This document shows, piece by piece, positions 2,885 through 54,403 of a stretch of DNA of 64,000 bases (the stretch's first letter is position 1; each line of letters opens with the position of its first letter). The notes under the pieces are model-generated. The model searched no databases and was not told the DNA's origin. It was given only the letters and a program-made list of their open reading frames with translations. Origin of the DNA: Candidatus Doudnabacteria bacterium (GTDB lineage Bacteria > Patescibacteriota > Doudnabacteria > UBA920); the NCBI GenBank assembly GCA_963768175.1, contig CAVYGQ010000001.1:840717-904716 (forward strand), given 5' to 3'. The position numbers and the translations under genes were made by a program.

Positions 2885-3601
2885 TCAGAGGTTTGCTGAC
2901 GTGTGCACCGCTATTACGTCTTCGTCATTTTCCAGCTCCTGAAACAGCGCGTCAACTTTCAGTTTTTGCTCTTCGGTTAGGTCCGTGCCTTGGGAGCTTT
3001 CTTTAATAATCTCCGCTTGGGCGATTTTGGCGCCGGCCTTTTCCAGGACTTGTTTGATTTTGTTCAAATCCGTGGGCTTGGTGTAAACTTCCAAACCTTC
3101 TTCTGACTCGCGTACATCATCGGCCCCCGCATCTATAGCCGCCAATTCAATATCAGATATTTCTGCATCGCGTTCTACCAAAATTTGTCCCTTGGTGGAA
3201 AATTGCCACGCCACGCTCCCTTGTGCCCCTAAGTTGCCGCTGTGTTTGGAGAACACATGTTTGATGTCATTGGTTGTCCTGTTGGGATTATCGGTTGCCG
3301 CTTCCACCAAAAATGCCGTGCCAAATGGCCCGTAGCCTTCATAAACCACTTCTTTTACTGCGCCGGCCCCTTCGCCAAGCGCGTTTTTGATTGCCCTGTC
3401 TATATTATCATTCGGCATGCCTTGTGCTTTGGCGGAATCCACGACGCTCTTTAATTTAAAATTCGCTTCTGGGTTTCCACCCCCGCCTTCCTTAACGGCA
3501 ATGGAAATTTTTTTGGAAAATTTGGAAAACAGCAGTCCTTTTTTTTGGTCAAGGGCTCCCTTAGTTCTTTTGATTTGCGACCATTTACTGTGACCGGACA
3601 T
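2885..3601 (-). CDS. yebC: YebC/PmpR family DNA-binding regulator
   Basis: 238 aa. MSGHSKWSQIKRTKGALDQKKG is the hallmark N-terminus of this family. Confidence 0.9.
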   Translation of the reverse strand: MSGHSKWSQIKRTKGALDQKKGLLFSKFSKKISIAVKEGGGGNPEANFKLKSVVDSAKAQGMPNDNIDRAIKNALGEGAGAVKEVVYEGYGPFGTAFLVEAATDNPNRTTNDIKHVFSKHSGNLGAQGSVAWQFSTKGQILVERDAEISDIELAAIDAGADDVRESEEGLEVYTKPTDLNKIKQVLEKAGAKIAQAEIIKESSQGTDLTEEQKLKVDALFQELENDEDVIAVHTSANL

Positions 3602-3672
3602 AAATAAGTAATGTAGCGCGCCGATTTATCGGCAACTTGAGACAGCCCATAAATGGGCATGCTACGCTGAGA

Positions 3673-4458
3673 TTATTTAAATGACACTAATACCGTAAAT
3701 TCTCCTTTAATGGAAGGTTTTTCTTTTAAAACATCAGAAACCTGCATCGGCGTACCGCGGATAAACTCTTCGTGCATTTTGGTGATTTCGCGGGCAATGA
3801 CGATTTGCGATGACGGAAAGGCATTGGTAATATAGTTTAAGGTTTTTAAAATCCGTTCCGGGGATTCATAAAAAATTGCTGTGGCTTCGGCATCGGCCGC
3901 GCTCTGCAGCGCCGAAACGGTTTTTGCCGCGGTTTTTTGTAAAAAACCCAAAAACATAAATTTATCGGTCGGCAAACCGGAGGCTGAAAGCGCGGCAATG
4001 GCGGCATTGGCTCCCGGGATCGGGACAACGGCCACATTTTCTTTTATGCACTCGCGCACCAAGCGAAAACCAGGATCGGAAATCCCGGGTGTGCCCGCAT
4101 CGGTAATTAAACAGCCGTCTTGTTTGGCCAGCCGGCGCGCCAGCTCTTTTACAATTTGTTGTTCGTTAAATTCCGCGAACTGAATAATTGGTTTCGCTGA
4201 AATTGCGAGGAGTGCATCCCGCCCCGACTCGCCGTCTTCGGCGAGGCGGGCCGACGAAGCAATCCCGTCTTTGTTTGAGATTGCCGCGCCCTCAGATGCA
4301 TTCGGGCTCGCAATTTCTAGACGTTCAATGTATTGCAGCAGCCTCCTGCTATATCCTGGATTTTCCGCAATAACAAAACTGCACGATTTTAAAGTTTCAA
4401 TCGCGCGCAGGGTTATGTCCCCCAGATTTCCTATTGGAGTCGCAACGATATACAACAT
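3673..4458 (-). CDS. rsmI: 16S rRNA (cytidine1402-2'-O)-methyltransferase RsmI, carrying an in-frame palindromic insert
   Basis: MLYIVATPIGNLGDITLRAIETLK and TDAGTPGISDPG motifs. Extra segment ASPNASEGAAISNKDGIASSARLAEDGESGRDALLAIS is encoded by a palindromic element at 4199-4317. Confidence 0.85.
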   Translation of the reverse strand: MLYIVATPIGNLGDITLRAIETLKSCSFVIAENPGYSRRLLQYIERLEIASPNASEGAAISNKDGIASSARLAEDGESGRDALLAISAKPIIQFAEFNEQQIVKELARRLAKQDGCLITDAGTPGISDPGFRLVRECIKENVAVVPIPGANAAIAALSASGLPTDKFMFLGFLQKTAAKTVSALQSAADAEATAIFYESPERILKTLNYITNAFPSSQIVIAREITKMHEEFIRGTPMQVSDVLKEKPSIKGEFTVLVSFK

Positions 4459-12795: not shown

Positions 12796-12872
12796 GGGCT
12801 AGTAGCTCAGCTGGTTAGAGCACGTCTCTTATAAGGACGGGGTCGATGGTCCGAATCCATCCTAGCCCACCA
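12796..12872 (+). tRNA. tRNA-Ile (anticodon UAU), CCA encoded
   Basis: Hand-folded cloverleaf: GGGCTAG/CTAGCCC acceptor, anticodon stem CGTCT/GGACG, loop CTTATAA. T loop is TCCGAAT (C at position 55). Confidence 0.85.
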
Positions 12873-22459: not shown

Positions 22460-23924
22460 ACTGCCAAACGTCCGCGGCCGGTTTGCTGGCCGGGTTTTCT
22501 TTGAAGTAGATTTTACGATTCTTTAGGGGCGTCCAGTCAGACGGCGTGGAAATAAAGTCGCCGAGATAAGGTTTTGCAATATCCAGCACAAAATCGTGCG
22601 GCAAGTCGTCAGGCAGGCAAATACCTTTTTTCGGATTTTCAAACATCCATAGTACGGCGGCAATTACGCCTAGCGCGACCTGTAAAGTGGTGGCATTTTG
22701 GCCAGGTGCCAGCCTCCGGGCTTCCTGTATGCTTAAATCGCTCCCTGTCCACCAAGAATTATACCGATGCCCCATCAGTAGCGCGCCTAAAATGTCCGCC
22801 CCGGAAGTAATCTCATCTTCCAAAATTCTTATCTTGGACTGCATTTCGTAATTCCTGCCGCGAAGTTCGCATAAAGAAGATAGTGTTTCGTGGCACGGCA
22901 TATACGCGTAATGCACTGTCGGGCGGTAAACTGCCCTATCTCCATCCCAAACTGTTAACCTGTCGGATAACCCAAATGCTTCGCCGTGGCGAATGACCAT
23001 GCCCACAATTTCTTCGTTGGGAATCCATGACCTTACCCAGGTATTAATTCCCATTTGGGAGAGCATAATCTGATTTTTTGGCCCGTAAGGCGGAATATTA
23101 GCCAAGTCCGGTAGCCTTTGTTCGTGTGTGCCCCAACCCATCTCGGCCGGCGCGGTTCCTTCTTCCCGCAAGCCTTCCACGCTCCAGGTTCCTACAAATT
23201 CATCAACTTCTTTTGGGCGATTGGTAATTTGCGTGTCGCGCTCGCTGCAGTGGATTACTTTGATTCCCAATTTTTGTCCGAGCAAATTGAATTTGAGGTT
23301 TTTAATATAATTTTCCAGTTCTTCCCTGTCTTTGCCAGCCACTTTTTTATCTGCGATTGTTTTATTGCCGATATCAATCAATCCTTGTTTGACAAAATGG
23401 GAGATCAAACCGGGGTTTGCGCCATGGTCCACGACTGCCGTAGTGGCGTCTTTCCAGTCTTTGGACATGTCGTGCAGTTTCATTTGGCGCCAGTAAAGCG
23501 ATTTTTCAAATGGGCTGTCAGTAAATAATCCCTTAATGGAATCCCAGATTTCAACCGAAGTATTTACATACAAAACATTATGGTCGTGGCACCAGCCGAT
23601 AATATCATTAGCACCAATATTCCATGCCAAATCTATAATCAGGCCGCCCTTGTCTGTGTATTTGGCCAACTCCGGGCCTAGGTTTTCCGGCGTAATCCTG
23701 TTGCGTACAAATTTGATGCCCTTGTCCGTGAATTTTTTTAAAGCCGCTGCTTTGTCTTCAAAATCCATTACCGTGACGTTTTTTGGGTCAACCTCAATTT
23801 TTTCCAGCAGAATCGGCAGGGTGCACTGCGACACCGCGCCATAACCGATAATCAAAATTTTGCGGTCAAACTTTTTTTTTCCGCCGGAGGCGGATCCGCC
23901 TTTAGCGGACATACGTTTTTCCAT
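22434..23924 (-). CDS. hss: Homospermidine synthase-like (saccharopine dehydrogenase family) enzyme
   Basis: 496 aa. KILIIGYGAVSQCTLPILLEKI resembles the bacterial HSS Rossmann N-terminus. The N-terminus carries the AKGGSASGG palindromic insert. Confidence 0.7.
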   Translation of the reverse strand: MEKRMSAKGGSASGGKKKFDRKILIIGYGAVSQCTLPILLEKIEVDPKNVTVMDFEDKAAALKKFTDKGIKFVRNRITPENLGPELAKYTDKGGLIIDLAWNIGANDIIGWCHDHNVLYVNTSVEIWDSIKGLFTDSPFEKSLYWRQMKLHDMSKDWKDATTAVVDHGANPGLISHFVKQGLIDIGNKTIADKKVAGKDREELENYIKNLKFNLLGQKLGIKVIHCSERDTQITNRPKEVDEFVGTWSVEGLREEGTAPAEMGWGTHEQRLPDLANIPPYGPKNQIMLSQMGINTWVRSWIPNEEIVGMVIRHGEAFGLSDRLTVWDGDRAVYRPTVHYAYMPCHETLSSLCELRGRNYEMQSKIRILEDEITSGADILGALLMGHRYNSWWTGSDLSIQEARRLAPGQNATTLQVALGVIAAVLWMFENPKKGICLPDDLPHDFVLDIAKPYLGDFISTPSDWTPLKNRKIYFKENPASKPAADVWQFENFRFIP

Positions 23925-44094: not shown

Positions 44095-45648
44095 ATGCAA
44101 AACCTTATAAAGGATCAGCAGAAAATCGGCCAGTTTATAGCCGAAGTCCGTGAGCTTAAAGGCTTTACCCAAAGCCAGTTTGCCAAAAGCTTAAAAACCA
44201 GCCAGTCAGCCGTAGCCAGGATGGAAAGCGGCCAGCAAAACTTAACTACAGAGATGCTGGCTAAGATTAGCGCAGTTTTGAACCATGAAATTATTACGTT
44301 GGCCGACAAGTCGGTAAATTTTAAAATAGAAGGCGGGCGGAAACTTTCGGGAAGGGTCGCGGTTAATACTTCCAAGAATGCCGCGGTGGCGCTGTTGTGC
44401 GCTTCTTTGCTTAATGAAGGTAAAACTATTTTTAAGAATGTGCCTAAAATAGAGGAAGTCTACCGGGTAATTGAAGTTTTGGTCAGTCTTGGCGTCTCGG
44501 TAAAATGGCAGGGCGCGGATGTGGAAATTTTGCCGGGCAAAAAAATTACCATAAATAAAATAGACAAAGAAGCCGCGGTTAAAACCAGAAGCGTTCTTAT
44601 GCTGCTTGGGCCTTTGGCTCATATTCTTCCCGCTTTTAACCTGCCTTTGGCCGGCGGCTGCAAACTGGGCGAACGGACCGTGAGGCCGCATTTGTTTGCT
44701 TTGGAAAAGCTTGGAGTTAAAATTCAGACCCATCATGACCATTACGCCGTAAGCTCGGCTAAAGCTCCCGCCAAAGGCGGATCCGCCTCCGGCGGAAAAA
44801 CCGCGGAGGTAGTGCTTTACGAAATGGGTGACACAGTGACGGAAAACACGCTTATGGCCGCGGCAAAAATAAACGGCGTGACCACCATCAAGCTGGCCTC
44901 TTCCAATTACATGGTGCAGGATTTATGTCATTTTTTGCAAAGTTTGGGCGTAAAAATTGAAGGCGTGGGTACCTCCACCTTAAAAGTGCATGGCAAACCG
45001 CACATTAACCAGCGTGTGGTCTTTTATTTAAGCGAAGACCCCATAGAAGCCATGCTGTTTTTGTCTTTGGCTGTCACCACAAATTCTTCCATAACCGTTG
45101 AGCGCTGCCCCATAGACTTTTTGGAGCTGGAACTGTTGAAATTGGAAAAGATGGGGTTTAAGTACCGGATTATTAAGCGTTATAAAAGCCATAACGGTAT
45201 TACCAATTTGGCAGATATTAAGACTTTCCCGTCTAAATTAATCGCGCTGGAAGAAAAAATCCACCCGTTGACGTCCTCGGCCGGAATTAATATAGATAAC
45301 CTGCCGTTTTTTGTGCCCATTGCCACCCAGGCCAAAGGCACCACGCTGATTCACGACTGGGTTTACGAAAATCGCGCTATTTACTATTTGGAATTAAATA
45401 AGCTGCGGGCCAATATAATTTTGGCCGACGCCCACCGCGTTTACATAGACGGCCCGACCGAACTTAAAGCAGGCGAAGTCATTTGTCCCCCTGCCCTGCG
45501 CCCGGCCGCGATAATTCTAATTGCGATGTTAGCCGCCAAAGGCACCTCTATTCTCCGCAACGTTTATTCCATAAACCGCGGCTATGAGAATTTGGTGCAG
45601 CGATTACAGAAGCTCGGAGCCAAGATCGAAATGATACATGGCATGTAA
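44095..45648 (+). CDS. murA: UDP-N-acetylglucosamine 1-carboxyvinyltransferase with N-terminal XRE-type HTH domain
   Basis: 517 aa. Residues 1-70, IGQFIAEVRELKGFTQSQFAKSLKTSQSAVARMESGQQNLTTEMLAKISAVL, form a Cro/C1 HTH. The rest is MurA (KLSGRVAVNTSKNAAVALLCASLL, LAGGCKLGERTVRPH with the active-site Cys retained). In-frame AKGGSASGG insert. Confidence 0.85.
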   Translation: MQNLIKDQQKIGQFIAEVRELKGFTQSQFAKSLKTSQSAVARMESGQQNLTTEMLAKISAVLNHEIITLADKSVNFKIEGGRKLSGRVAVNTSKNAAVALLCASLLNEGKTIFKNVPKIEEVYRVIEVLVSLGVSVKWQGADVEILPGKKITINKIDKEAAVKTRSVLMLLGPLAHILPAFNLPLAGGCKLGERTVRPHLFALEKLGVKIQTHHDHYAVSSAKAPAKGGSASGGKTAEVVLYEMGDTVTENTLMAAAKINGVTTIKLASSNYMVQDLCHFLQSLGVKIEGVGTSTLKVHGKPHINQRVVFYLSEDPIEAMLFLSLAVTTNSSITVERCPIDFLELELLKLEKMGFKYRIIKRYKSHNGITNLADIKTFPSKLIALEEKIHPLTSSAGINIDNLPFFVPIATQAKGTTLIHDWVYENRAIYYLELNKLRANIILADAHRVYIDGPTELKAGEVICPPALRPAAIILIAMLAAKGTSILRNVYSINRGYENLVQRLQKLGAKIEMIHGM

Positions 45649-48284: not shown

Positions 48285-48524
48285 TTATTTTTTTATCAGT
48301 TTTAACTTTTTTATCCGTGGCCACTTTTTTATTTCCGCCTCGCGCTTAAGCGCCTTGCCCCAGCTCTTGAATTTTTCATGGTAAACAATTTTTCCGCCGC
48401 CGTGGGCGATTACATATTTGGAACCTTTACCGGAATTGTGTTTTTGCTCCCGCTTTTTTAAATCCTTGGCGCTGCCGGAATATAGCGTGCCGTCTTTGCA
48501 TTTTAGGATGTAGAAATAGAACAT
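48285..48524 (-). CDS. GIY-YIG nuclease superfamily protein (UPF0213-like)
   Basis: 79 aa. FYFYILKCKDGTLYSGSAKDLKKREQKHNSG. Confidence 0.75.
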   Translation of the reverse strand: MFYFYILKCKDGTLYSGSAKDLKKREQKHNSGKGSKYVIAHGGGKIVYHEKFKSWGKALKREAEIKKWPRIKKLKLIKK

Positions 48525-48570
48525 GTCTTTACTTAAGTTCGGATTATAGCTAAAATTATAGAGATTTACT

Positions 48571-48771
48571 GGGCCTATAGTAAAGTGGTATTACGCGGCA
48601 TTTTCACCCCGTCACTAAATTGCATACAATACAAATGCTGGGCCTATGGTCCAGTGGTAAGACACGGCATTCGCATTGCCGGGACGCGAGTTCGATTCTC
48701 GCTAGGTCCACCAGCGTTTAGTGACGGGGCGAGTTGCTGAGGCGGGAGTTCGATTCTCCCTGGGTCCACCA
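48571..48771 (+). tRNA. Interrupted tRNA gene: 5' part 48571-48606 and 3' part 48734-48771 (Ala-type acceptor G3:U70/A73, anticodon UUC if joined at 37/38), 127-nt insert
   Basis: Hand fold: GGGCCTA TA GTAA AGTGGTA TTAC G CGGCA TTTTCA | insert | T TGCTG AGGC GGGAG TTCGATT CTCCC TGGGTCC A CCA. All four stems pair. The insert starts and ends with a perfect 13-bp helix CCCCGTCACTAAA/TTTAGTGACGGGG. Confidence 0.5.
48640..48713 (+). tRNA. tRNA-Ala (CGC), CCA encoded, nested inside the insert of the interrupted tRNA
   Basis: GGGCCTA/TAGGTCC acceptor with G3:U70, anticodon arm CGGCA TTCGCAT TGCCG, T arm GCGAG TTCGATT CTCGC. Confidence 0.9.
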
Positions 48772-48944
48772 TTTGACTTCGTTTCAGCAAGTTGAAACTT
48801 CGCTTATGGTTTTCGACCATATTACCGACGAATGTTTATACTTAGATAAAGTCGAATGTCTTGAGCGAGCGAAGCGAGTCGAAAGGCACTCACTCTCGTG
48901 GCCTTCGGCCAAATAATTCCCCCGATAAGGGGTTTTATCGTCTT

Positions 48945-52819: not shown

Positions 52820-54403
52820 ATGGACTTGTTTGTTCCAAAATTTATCCAATACCAATTATACCTGCTCCAGCTGGAAAATTATGAGCTGGGAAGGTATTGG
52901 AAATTGCTTATAAAAAAGGGAGTTTTCCCTAAAAAAAGCCAACCTTTGCGCAAAGAGCTGGTCTGGACCGCTAAAGCTCGGGCGTTAATGCTTATGGCTG
53001 TGGCCCTGCATGGTTTGGTGGTCGTTTTGGTTGGGCTTATGGTTTTAACTTTAAAGCCGGGCATAGATAACTTTTTTACCACAATAATTTTGGCGGTATT
53101 AATTTTGTTGCCGTTTTATTTTGTTTTTTTCAGTCTGGCTTTGTTAATCCTTAAGCCTTTGGACACTCTGGTAAAACAAAGCCTTGTGGCTAAAGCCAAA
53201 ACCAAGCTGGCTGGATTGCCTGATGTCAAGATAATCGGCGTTGCCGGCAGTTACGGCAAAACTACAATGAAGGAAGTGTTGAGGGCAGTGCTAAGTGCTA
53301 AGTTCAAAGTGCTAAGTACGCCGGAGAGCATAAACACGCCGGTGGGGATTGCCAGATGGATTATAAATAAAATAACGGACGAAACCCAAATTCTGATTGT
53401 AGAAATGGGGGAGCATTATGAGAAAGACGTTAAAGAAATTTGCGATATAGCAAAACCCGACATCGCGGTGGTTACCGGCATTAACGAATCCCACTTGGAG
53501 CGGATGAAAAAAATGGATACGGTTATTGCCACAATTTTTGAAATCGTGAGTAACGCCCAGCCCGGCGCGGCTATTGTGCTAAACGGCGATGATCGCAGGG
53601 TTATGGAGAATTATAAAAAATTTGTCTGGCCAGACCATCGGCTGGAATTTTTTACAAAAAATCCCGGCAGTGAAAAGTGTAAAGTGAAAAGTGCAAAGTT
53701 TAACACAGACAAGCTGTGTTGGAATTTAGAGATTGATGATCTTGGCTCGGTAGAACTGGATTTACTTGGGGAATACGCGTTGGGCGACGTTGACGCGGCC
53801 GTGAAAATTGCCAAAAGTTTGGGTATGAGCAATGAGCAAATTATCGCGGGGATCAAAAATATCAAGCCCGTGGAGCACAGGCTCCAGCCGATAAAGTCTG
53901 CCACGAATGTTTTGGTAATAGACGACAGTTACAACGGCAATTCCGACGGAGTAGTGGAAGCCATAAAAGTTTTGTCGCGCTTTTCCGCCAAAGGCGGATC
54001 CGCCTCCGGCGGAGAAGGCCGCCGGAAGATTTATATCACTCCCGGGCTGGTGGAAATAGGCAAAAGTTCCGCCGATATTCATCGCAGTATTGGCAAACAG
54101 CTGGCGGACGTTGCGGATGTGGTTATTTTGATAAAAAATAGCGCGACGGGGTTTATTGAAGAGGGAATCCTCTTAGGGCGTCATTCTGACCCTGAGCGGA
54201 GCGAAGGGGAAGAATCTCAAACTAAGGATAAAGAGATCCTTCGTCCCTCGGATGCACTCGGGGCTCAGGATGACGCCGCTGGTAAGAGACCAAGAATTAT
54301 CTGGTTTAATTCCGCCTTGGAAGCGTACGCGGGGCTAAAAGACATTTTAAAACCCGGGGATGTAATTTTGTTTCAGAACGATTGGGGAGACCAGTATTTG
54401 TAA
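52820..54403 (+). CDS. murF: Mur ligase, MurF-like (UDP-MurNAc-tripeptide--D-Ala-D-Ala ligase) with N-terminal membrane segment and in-frame repeat inserts
   Basis: 527 aa. GVAGSYGKTTMKE P-loop and VIDDSYNGN. The first 115 aa or so contain 3 hydrophobic helices. Inserts at 53985-54012 (AKGGSASGG) and 54178-54277 (RPE-like). Confidence 0.8.
   Translation: MDLFVPKFIQYQLYLLQLENYELGRYWKLLIKKGVFPKKSQPLRKELVWTAKARALMLMAVALHGLVVVLVGLMVLTLKPGIDNFFTTIILAVLILLPFYFVFFSLALLILKPLDTLVKQSLVAKAKTKLAGLPDVKIIGVAGSYGKTTMKEVLRAVLSAKFKVLSTPESINTPVGIARWIINKITDETQILIVEMGEHYEKDVKEICDIAKPDIAVVTGINESHLERMKKMDTVIATIFEIVSNAQPGAAIVLNGDDRRVMENYKKFVWPDHRLEFFTKNPGSEKCKVKSAKFNTDKLCWNLEIDDLGSVELDLLGEYALGDVDAAVKIAKSLGMSNEQIIAGIKNIKPVEHRLQPIKSATNVLVIDDSYNGNSDGVVEAIKVLSRFSAKGGSASGGEGRRKIYITPGLVEIGKSSADIHRSIGKQLADVADVVILIKNSATGFIEEGILLGRHSDPERSEGEESQTKDKEILRPSDALGAQDDAAGKRPRIIWFNSALEAYAGLKDILKPGDVILFQNDWGDQYL
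54178..54277. repeat. Palindromic MITE/RPE-like element, in-frame inside murF (copy 3)
   Basis: GGCGTCATTCTGACCCTGAGCGGAGCGAAGGGGAAGAATCTCAAAC...AGAGATCCTTCGTCCCTCGGATGCACTCGGGGCTCAGGATGACGCC. Translated as GRHSDPERSEGEESQTKDKEILRPSDALGAQDDAA. Confidence 0.8.

Follow-up and report, generated by a model that had tools for sequence, protein, structure and literature searches.

A tRNA-Ala gene lodged in the anticodon loop of another tRNA-Ala gene: a probable self-complementing mobile cassette of Patescibacteria

Split and nested tRNA gene structures have been discussed mainly for archaea, in which the intron of tRNA-Trp holds a C/D box RNA. Miniature inverted-repeat transposable elements (MITEs) and the Rickettsia palindromic elements are miniature palindromic elements that insert in genes and RNA genes, integrase-driven islands at tRNA genes duplicate the 3' end of the tRNA as attL/attR, and Paquin et al. 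reportedly described in 1994, in Allomyces atp6, a mitochondrial GIY-YIG open reading frame (ORF) that is inserted in the gene and carries a copy of the displaced gene end. SegB of phage T4 is a GIY-YIG homing endonuclease found in a tRNA gene cluster (PMC2330249), and group I introns have been described at position 35/36 of tRNA genes in Patescibacteria, in a study that reports neither tRNA-Ala nor nested tRNAs (PMC13011429). Here we analyze a stretch of 64,000 nucleotides from a Candidatus Doudnabacteria bacterium (contig CAVYGQ010000001.1, positions 840,717 to 904,716; hereafter the window), in which a tRNA-Ala gene is interrupted in its anticodon loop by an insert that contains a complete second tRNA-Ala gene. 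We consider it probable, at about 0.7, that this insert is a self-complementing, ORF-less mobile tRNA cassette that spreads in a homing-type manner, and that the interrupted outer halves are a relic. No description of this arrangement was found in the literature that we searched on nested, interrupted, or split bacterial tRNA genes, nor are nested bacterial tRNA genes described in the passages of the tFind preprint retrieved by relevant terms, so that the family of tRNA-in-tRNA cassettes appears to be unreported.

The original prediction, made from the letters of the window, described a tRNA split at 37/38, an insert closed by a helix, and an inner tRNA-Ala(CGC); all of its coordinates and sequences were reproduced, and the locus reads as follows.

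48571-48606, plus strand: outer 5' half, GGGCCTATAGTAAAGTGGTATTACGCGGCATTTTCA, positions 1-37 of the resident tRNA-Ala gene
48607-48733, plus strand: insert of 127 nt, at 37/38 of the outer tRNA
48607-48619, plus strand: 5' arm of the cassette, CCCCGTCACTAAA, with a leading CCC that is invariant family-wide
48620-48639, plus strand: spacer and 5' leader of the inner tRNA, 20 nt, TTGCATACAATACAAATGCT
48640-48713, plus strand: inner intact tRNA-Ala(CGC) with encoded CCA (ARAGORN; Rfam RF00005, 61.7 bits)
48714-48716, plus strand: 3-nt spacer GCG
48717-48729, plus strand: 3' arm of the cassette, TTTAGTGACGGGG, the perfect complement of 48607-48619
48730-48733, plus strand: junction tetranucleotide CGAG (C-R-A-G in the family, with C, A, and G invariant in 21/21 members)
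48734-48771, plus strand: outer 3' half, positions 38-76 including CCA, of the resident tRNA-Ala gene

In the native sequence, the inner tRNA-Ala(cgc) is the only call at the locus by ARAGORN and Rfam, and the intron mode of ARAGORN finds nothing beyond it. When the halves are joined in silico, they give a 74-nt tRNA that ARAGORN labels "Glu(ttc)," with a 7-bp acceptor stem (including G3.U70 and U6.G67), a 4-bp D stem, a 5-bp anticodon stem with one G.U pair, a 5-bp T stem, A73, and CCA. The anticodon-loop remnant of the outer 5' half is TTTTCA, and the uninterrupted orthologs considered below have TTCGCA. The outer and inner tRNAs are paralogous, at 82-84% identity, and 74 of the 127 nt of the insert are tRNA. 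The 13-mer arm occurs at two places only in the window, both of them at this locus, and the inverted repeat can be extended to 16 nt with one mismatch. With its 127 nt, its perfect 13-bp arms, and no ORF, the insert has the size and the inverted repeats of a MITE-type element; no target-site duplication was seen on its flanks. As regards the CCA end, it is encoded in both the inner and the outer copy of the window, whereas in L085, L065, L068, L081 (related loci are given L numbers throughout), and many metagenome units, it is often encoded in one copy (the inner tRNA or the outer 3' half) and not in the other.

In its form, the insert resembles several of the systems introduced above. It shares the 37/38 position with archaeal and eukaryal tRNA introns, a GC-started helix of 12-14 bp beside the break with the leaders of the Nanoarchaeum tRNA halves, and a functional RNA inside the insert with the archaeal tRNA-Trp intron. 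Unlike the archaeal and eukaryal introns and the split tRNAs of Nanoarchaeum, however, it resides in a bacterial host, has no bulge-helix-bulge geometry, and gives no sensible anticodon from its "exons"; moreover, the cassette supplies a replacement tRNA and the outer copies decay. The group I introns of Patescibacteria come from the same phylum and are likewise inserted in the anticodon loop (UGC-type cassettes of L065 and L068 even lie exactly at 35/36), but the insert differs from them by its 127 nt, by the lack of a P3-P9 core and of an Intron_gpI match, by A rather than U at -1, and by its tRNA payload. Like MITEs and the Rickettsia palindromic elements, it is small, ORF-less, bounded by terminal inverted repeats, and probably mobilized in trans, and the window also holds a separate palindromic repeat of 29 nt in frame in three ORFs; unlike MITEs, it is present in one copy per window, lacks a target-site duplication, targets one tRNA loop, and carries a functional gene as cargo. 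Integrase islands at tRNA genes also have a tRNA as target, often its anticodon loop, and repair the gene with sequence that they bring along, whereas here there is no integrase, the element measures 127 nt, and 5' and 3' relics stand symmetrically around a complete inner gene.

The origin of the two tRNAs becomes apparent when the locus is compared with that of relatives. In L007, genes for MurA and a GIY-YIG protein are followed by an uninterrupted tRNA-Ala(cgc), which is identical to the joined halves of the window at 69/74 positions and differs only at pair 12:23 (C-G versus A-T), at position 67, and in the anticodon (CGC versus TTC); hence, the outer 5' half equals positions 1-37 of the L007 tRNA save for 12, 23, and the anticodon, and the outer 3' half matches its 3' part at 37/38 positions (97.4% by blastn). 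L184 and L186, which share the synteny of RlmH, GIY-YIG, and MgtA with the window, also have an uninterrupted tRNA-Ala(cgc), and this tRNA matches the outer halves of L180 at 71/74 positions, the differences being G15A and, once more, CG to TT in the anticodon. At this locus, L180 (which L142 continues) has the same cassette that is found in the window, with a related spacer (TTGAATACAAATGTT). The syntenic tRNA-Ala(cgc) site is thus filled in the window and L180/L142 and empty in L007, L184, and L186; the outer copies of the window and of L180 are each closest to an uninterrupted ortholog, and besides the anticodon, the changes after insertion amount to A67G (which gives U.G) in the window and G15A in L180. 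Since the syntenic relatives have an uninterrupted CGC tRNA, the outer halves are the resident tRNA-Ala(CGC) gene, and the insert brings a replacement of the same isoacceptor. Compensated stem changes in the outer halves had been taken as a sign of ongoing constraint; yet the same differences (12:23, 7:66, 52:62, and 28:42) separate the uninterrupted tRNA of L007 from those of L184/L186 and are therefore older than the insertion. The original prediction had also named two observations that would speak for a dead outer gene: an uninterrupted tRNA in relatives was found, and stem-breaking substitutions in the window halves were not. Of the readings that it offered, the one supported by the empty and filled alleles, by the family, and by the decayed outer copies described below is that of a tRNA-carrying palindromic element that killed a tRNA gene.

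Several comparisons show that the histories of the cassette and of the host tRNA are discordant. Between the window and L180, the 201-nt unit is 92% identical, versus 70-78% for the neighboring genes, and the intergenic DNA cannot be aligned; within the cassette, the inner tRNA is identical at 73/74 and the arms at 13/13 positions. The window, L180, and L164 cassettes have identical arms and inner tRNAs that are 96-99% identical, and the proteins that flank the L164 unit are only ∼40-50% identical in amino acids to those of the window. The similarities of the two tRNAs are also ranked differently, the inner tRNA of the window being closest to that of L180 (99%), then L164 (96%) and L145 (84%), and its outer copy to that of L145 (95%), then L180 (89%) and L164 (86%). 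Furthermore, the inner tRNA of the window is closer to the cassettes of other genomes than to its own outer copy. According to the amino acid identity of RlmH (92% for L180-L184, 91% for L180-L186, 85-87% for the window versus these, with L007 more distant), filled alleles are interspersed with empty ones in the five syntenic genomes. Near-identical cassettes in diverged host alleles, together with this interleaving, thus point to site-specific horizontal gain, i.e., homing, which is further favored by the remoteness of the L164 host and by the discordance of the similarities. In addition, the CG-to-TT anticodon change accompanies the cassette in both the window and the L180 alleles, and it is best read as donor sequence that would have been co-converted with the cassette.

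The window cassette belongs to a family. A scan of GTDB species genomes with the pattern of the outer T arm and acceptor gave 88 loci, nearly all of them normal Patescibacteria tRNA-Ala genes and a handful (L085, L065, L068, and L081) having an additional 3' half behind a complete tRNA-Ala, and a scan of metagenomes with the 3' junction (GGGCRAGTTG... T arm) gave 93 stretches. Random GC-rich coding matches without tRNA context account for a minority of these stretches (nine of 60 non-redundant 3' halves), and the metagenome and genome scans together hold about 46 real non-redundant 3' halves with the same architecture, from independent assemblies, a recurrence that far exceeds chance; this census is based on the strict class and on manual reading, a tolerant automatic search for 5' partners having given many spurious ones. 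The shared order is outer 5' half, loop remnant, CCC-arm, short spacer, tRNA-Ala(cgc), spacer, arm'-GGG, C-R-A-G, T38, and outer 3' half, with a family-wide junction pattern (TT)TTCA/CCC ... GGG-C-R-A-G/T, in which the slashes mark the borders of the insert. In a junction alignment of 21 distinct units, CCC/GGG, C-A-G, and T38 are invariant, and the covariation of the arms, given in figures below, likewise supports a conserved family. The insertions of the family are confined to tRNA-Ala genes. Among related loci, insertions were also seen at D-loop, 26/27, and T-loop positions.

The outer copies of the family show degenerate anticodon loops and various stages of decay. Their loop remnants are TTTTCA in the majority, including the window, and otherwise TTTTTA, TTCGTTCA, TTTCCA, ATTTCA, or the intact TTCGCA, with G3:U70 always kept. 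Among the ∼46 outer copies, for which sufficient upstream sequence is available, 21 have a perfect partner (12/12 inter-half pairs and exact spacing) and five have one acceptor mismatch; in the remaining ∼20, which make up the ∼40% that are defective, the partner is missing, truncated, chimeric, or interrupted by a hairpin. The most elaborate case is L091 (minus strand, 1211-1665), where five 5' halves, each with a CCCCGTTAGA-type arm, are stacked before one intact tRNA-Ala(cgc) and two 3' halves. Two-level nests with deleted parts are found in L135/L155, L089, L176, and L168. Such stacked and eroded shells are the pattern expected if one intact copy is invaded repeatedly while the older shells decay. 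In L091, halves 2 and 5 are near-identical, which suggests a block duplication besides nesting. Short hairpins (e.g., CTCCGACGTAAAAGTCGGAG) lie in the D loop or near position 26 of outer 5' halves in L100, L149, L013, L081, and L089, and L089 also has a hairpin made of arms only, CCCAGCACC...GGTGCGGGG, with no tRNA inside.

Our working model accommodates these patterns in the following manner. The cassette, composed of arm, spacer, tRNA-Ala(CGC), spacer, complementary arm, and C-R-A-G, would invade a resident tRNA-Ala(CGC) gene at 37/38 and would destroy this gene while delivering a working copy of the same isoacceptor, which is what we mean by self-complementing. A precursor of ∼200 nt would be transcribed from the promoter of the host gene, the inner tRNA would be released from it by ordinary end-processing, i.e., RNase P and 3' trimming, and the outer pieces would be discarded, such that the outer halves would represent a young relic and not the exons of a spliced tRNA. 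Since the target of the cassette, an intact anticodon loop of tRNA-Ala(CGC), is restored by the cassette itself, it could be invaded anew, and the resulting Russian-doll nests would later lose parts through deletions. The cassette would spread, by homing or gene conversion, upon breakage of an intact tRNA-Ala(CGC) gene or upon its recombination with a filled allele, for which the tRNA halves would provide the homology. A GIY-YIG endonuclease acting in trans would be the most likely trigger, and the cassette may be a miniature, tRNA-carrying relative of the hairpin-enclosed GIY-YIG elements described below. Two features next to the nested unit are relevant to this model.

48528-48556, plus strand: promoter-like site TTTACT-17-TAAAAT found by a consensus scan, just upstream of the outer 5' half
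48285-48524, minus strand: protein of 79 amino acids with a GIY-YIG domain only (Pfam PF01541, E = 2.7e-16), divergent from the tRNA and 46 nt away

The TTTACT-17-TAAAAT site also lies upstream of the uninterrupted allele in L186 and is presumed to be the promoter of the resident tRNA, which would now drive the whole nested unit. A second sigma-70-like pair is made up of TTTTCA, in the mutated anticodon loop, and TACAAT, in the spacer (48601-48630, 18-nt spacing), and would place a transcription start close to where the inner tRNA begins; we take it as due to chance, as it is specific to the window and the spacer is too short in most cassettes.

GIY-YIG ORFs accompany tRNA-Ala genes in several related loci, where 10 of the 15 found in 1.23 Mb lie within 200 nt of a tRNA-Ala gene. 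In L098 (minus strand, 1463-1747) and L168 (3665-3949), a GIY-YIG ORF (PF01541) directly behind the nested unit is enclosed by perfect 15-nt arms, ATCCCGTTAGAGAAA ... TTTCTCTAACGGGAT, whose motif family also includes the most frequent arms of the cassettes, CCCCGTTAGAAAT / ATTTCTAACGGGG. These 15-nt arms overlap the start and stop codons of the ORF (ATGAATCCCGTTAGAG ... CTCTAACGGGATGA), and their pairing could sequester the start codon and thereby provide translational control of the nuclease. In L029 (5225-5655), a tRNA-Ala(UGC) is preceded by its own partial copy (1-57), with a GIY-YIG ORF between the two and the stop codon of the ORF inside the complete tRNA, and L013 (5350-5745) has a partial tRNA-Ala(UGC) (1-19 plus 22-31), a GIY-YIG ORF, and then a complete copy. 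A second cassette family is inserted at 35/36 of tRNA-Ala(UGC), with the junctions G/TCCCGA ... CATCGGAA/CAT: in L065 (minus strand, 3512-3990), an outer tRNA-Ala(UGC) encloses both a GIY-YIG ORF with a frameshift and a helix-closed tRNA-Ala(UGC), and in L068 (219-522), whose junctions are the same, a hairpin replaces the ORF. In the outer copy of L068, G1 is changed to T, the D stem has a mismatch, and the D loop bears a second insertion.

These associations bring the cassette close to GIY-YIG homing elements that are free-standing or lack an intron, with which it shares a single target gene, filled and empty alleles, co-conversion of the flank (here the anticodon CG to TT), and the supply of a replacement; as with T4 SegB, GIY-YIG ORFs are associated with tRNA genes. 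In contrast to such elements, the cassette has no ORF, carries a whole tRNA, and is inserted inside the anticodon loop of its own paralog; its 13-bp arms covary, its multi-level nests can be invaded again, and it is known from sequence alone.

Several observations weigh against the model. The GIY-YIG gene of the window has no arms, genes of its type also stand beside an intact tRNA-Ala(cgc) in L007 and L186, and a close homolog in L182/L183 has no tRNA nearby, so that the window protein is at best a weak candidate for the trans-acting endonuclease. Homing itself is deduced from comparative patterns, and the alleles of the five syntenic genomes can be explained with equal parsimony by two gains or by a single gain followed by a precise loss. 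No cassette was found in catalogued viral contigs, which gave four random coding matches and hence no vector. About half of the outer copies remain perfect cloverleaves, which would also fit selection on the outer fold. Lastly, the arms covary: 11 of the 14 pairs change on both sides and 90.8% of the cells are paired (values reached by 0/500 shuffles, with slid controls at 37-45%), and the anticodon stem, whose strands are 110-130 nt apart, is 100% paired with 3/5 pairs compensated, in 21 units that had been preselected for a 9-nt arm complement and at least 4/5 anticodon-stem pairs, which inflates the pairing there. Such covarying arms would be superfluous in pure DNA homing and argue for a function at the level of RNA or of single-stranded DNA; the arm mismatches, two G.T versus two A.C, do not separate the two kinds of pairing. 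The arms may serve as a clamp or processing stem in the RNA, as a hairpin with a role in translation or processing that derives from an ORF-bearing element, or as a DNA hairpin recognized by its structure.

Some of these observations lend some credit to a different explanation, in which the insertion is old, vertically kept, and immobile, with the outer halves and arms forming a folding clamp or a processing scaffold for an essential inner tRNA, for instance as an RNase III-type stem or as insulation against mispairing. The strong covariation of the arms, the 12/12 inter-half pairs kept in 21 of the ∼46 outer copies, and the presence of the nested unit at the syntenic position in the distant relatives L145 and L164 all speak for it, and one gain with one loss fits the five syntenic genomes equally well. 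The 201-nt RNA is predicted to fold at -85.7 kcal/mol (z = -5.2, a stability reached by 0/200 shuffles), in a structure that includes the outer cloverleaf along with the arms. Also in favor of a scaffold, the swapped folds, in which outer and inner halves form chimeras, are fully pairable (26/26 and 29/29 pairs), and the arms contribute about -23 kcal/mol to the nested fold. However, the nested fold remains favored when the arms are removed (-45 versus -31 and -27 kcal/mol for the swapped folds), and we consider a role of the arms as a guard against mispairing of the paralogous halves to be weak. Moreover, the empty alleles of the closest relatives, L184, L186, and L007, indicate that a scaffold is dispensable, the similarities of cassettes and outer copies are discordant in L180, L164, and L145, and ∼40% of the outer copies are broken, with orphan halves stacked upon each other. 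Taken together, these points make a conserved scaffold unlikely.

A related idea, to which we give still less credence, is that the nested transcript is processed, with RNase P/Z freeing the inner tRNA and RNase III perhaps cutting in the arms, to a two-piece or religated tRNA-like molecule that AlaRS could charge via G3:U70 but that could not decode. It would be a dedicated alanine carrier or regulator kept off the ribosome, or it would speak for protein-based tRNA splicing in bacteria. Such a molecule would explain both the covariation of the arms and the perfect outer cloverleaves whose anticodons are systematically destroyed.

That the insert is a true intron, as the original prediction considered, seems very improbable. 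In this scenario, the 127 nt would be removed by a bacterial pathway of a new kind, e.g., RNase III or RNase P/Z plus RtcB, and the joined tRNA would function, possibly charged with alanine while carrying a UUC anticodon. The canonical 37/38 position, the helix that juxtaposes the exon ends, the perfect cloverleaf obtained on joining the halves, and the junction nucleotides kept family-wide are what one would expect of an intron. A bulge-helix-bulge motif consists of a 4-bp helix with a bulge of 3 nt on either side and spans the exon-intron junctions, whereas here the anticodon stem is followed by an internal loop (UU/U), three pairs (UUC/GAG), and an A/C mismatch before the 13-bp helix begins; neither the window fold nor direct reading, with several registers tried by hand, gave a fitting motif, and the family consensus TTTTCA/CCCC...GGGG-CAAG/T is likewise unable to form one. 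The window and six related loci have no match to Rfam Intron_gpI or to a small ribozyme at the gathering score, and positions 48450-48900 have none at E <= 1; in both searches, Rfam gave only tRNA and weak tmRNA-like tails. The splice sites also deviate from the group I rule of U at -1 and G as the last intron nucleotide, since -1 is A37 (the last nucleotide of the insert, 48733, is G). Furthermore, the insert replaces the very isoacceptor that it interrupts, and with ∼40% of the outer copies in the family devoid of a usable partner half, splicing or religation of the halves is not supported.

The suggestion of a dual-identity Glu/Ala tRNA fares no better. The joined product would combine a UUC anticodon with the alanine identity pair G3:U70, but the anticodon of the uninterrupted orthologs is CGC, and for the TTTTCA-type junction, no alternative splice register restores an alanine anticodon. 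Across the family, the outer loops read UUC, UUU, UCC, or CGC or have 8 nt, always with G3:U70, which would cause mistranslation if these tRNAs were functional; this mixture of anticodons with a constant G3:U70 is therefore unlike a decoding tRNA. Finally, a local rearrangement without a mobile element (tandem tRNA duplication plus internal rearrangement) or an assembly artifact can practically be dismissed, for although the two tRNAs of the locus are paralogs, dozens of independent JGI, ENA, and NCBI assemblies of metagenome-assembled genomes (MAGs) share these junctions and arms, the inner tRNA is nearer to the cassettes of other genomes than to its own outer copy, and tandem duplication accounts for neither the perfect inverted arms nor the nesting.

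If the mobile cassette model is correct, a selfish element is able to enter an essential RNA gene without self-splicing by carrying a spare copy of its own target, and this spare copy, by recreating the target, permits repeated invasion. The tRNA-in-tRNA design recurs in dozens of related genomes of Patescibacteria, or candidate phyla radiation (CPR), a group of ultra-small bacteria, and is sometimes stacked as in Russian dolls. It would provide a concrete and datable mechanism for the origin of bacterial tRNA genes that are split, nested, or littered with half genes, and it would tie a large uncharacterized group of GIY-YIG-only proteins of 80-95 amino acids to tRNA-Ala genes. Annotators should then be cautious with orphan tRNA halves and "intron-containing" tRNA calls in Patescibacteria, which may be relics. 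The role of the covarying arms would be a testable question posed by the cassette family.

The genes around the locus are typical of Patescibacteria and encode a MurA-like enzyme, a P-type cation ATPase, the GIY-YIG protein, and RlmH (PF02590). The nearest named relative of the GIY-YIG protein comes from a Candidatus Doudnabacteria MAG, and an exact-sequence look-up of the GIY-YIG and RlmH proteins of the window returned no record. The orientation of the tRNA relative to RlmH varies among the syntenic relatives, and toxin-antitoxin-type pairs of Gp49 (HigB-like) and helix-turn-helix (HTH) proteins lie near tRNA-Ala/GIY-YIG in L184 (1821-2496 and 2954-3226), L186 (2985-3819), and L182 (715-1366); judged from its gene order, the tRNA-Ala/GIY-YIG locus is a probable hot spot of rearrangement.

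The MurA-like enzyme of the window (PF00275, 44095-45648) has an N-terminal HTH_3 (XRE-type) DNA-binding domain, an unusual fusion. Its gene also holds one of three copies of a palindromic repeat of ∼29 nt, CCGCCAAAGGCGGATCCGCCTCCGGCGGA, located at 44761-44800, 53978-54017, and 23876-23915 (minus strand). Each copy is in frame in an ORF (MurA-like, MurF-like, and a third one) and adds the peptide AKGGSASGG, and the repeat looks like a miniature hairpin element tolerated within coding sequence. In L081, the outer tRNA fragment contains a similar hairpin, CCGCCCCAAAGGGCGG, in its D loop. A tRNA-Ile with the anticodon UAU is uncommon in bacteria, in which AUA is usually read by a lysidine-modified CAU tRNA; one with the anticodon TAT (UAU) was called by ARAGORN at 12796-12872 of the window.

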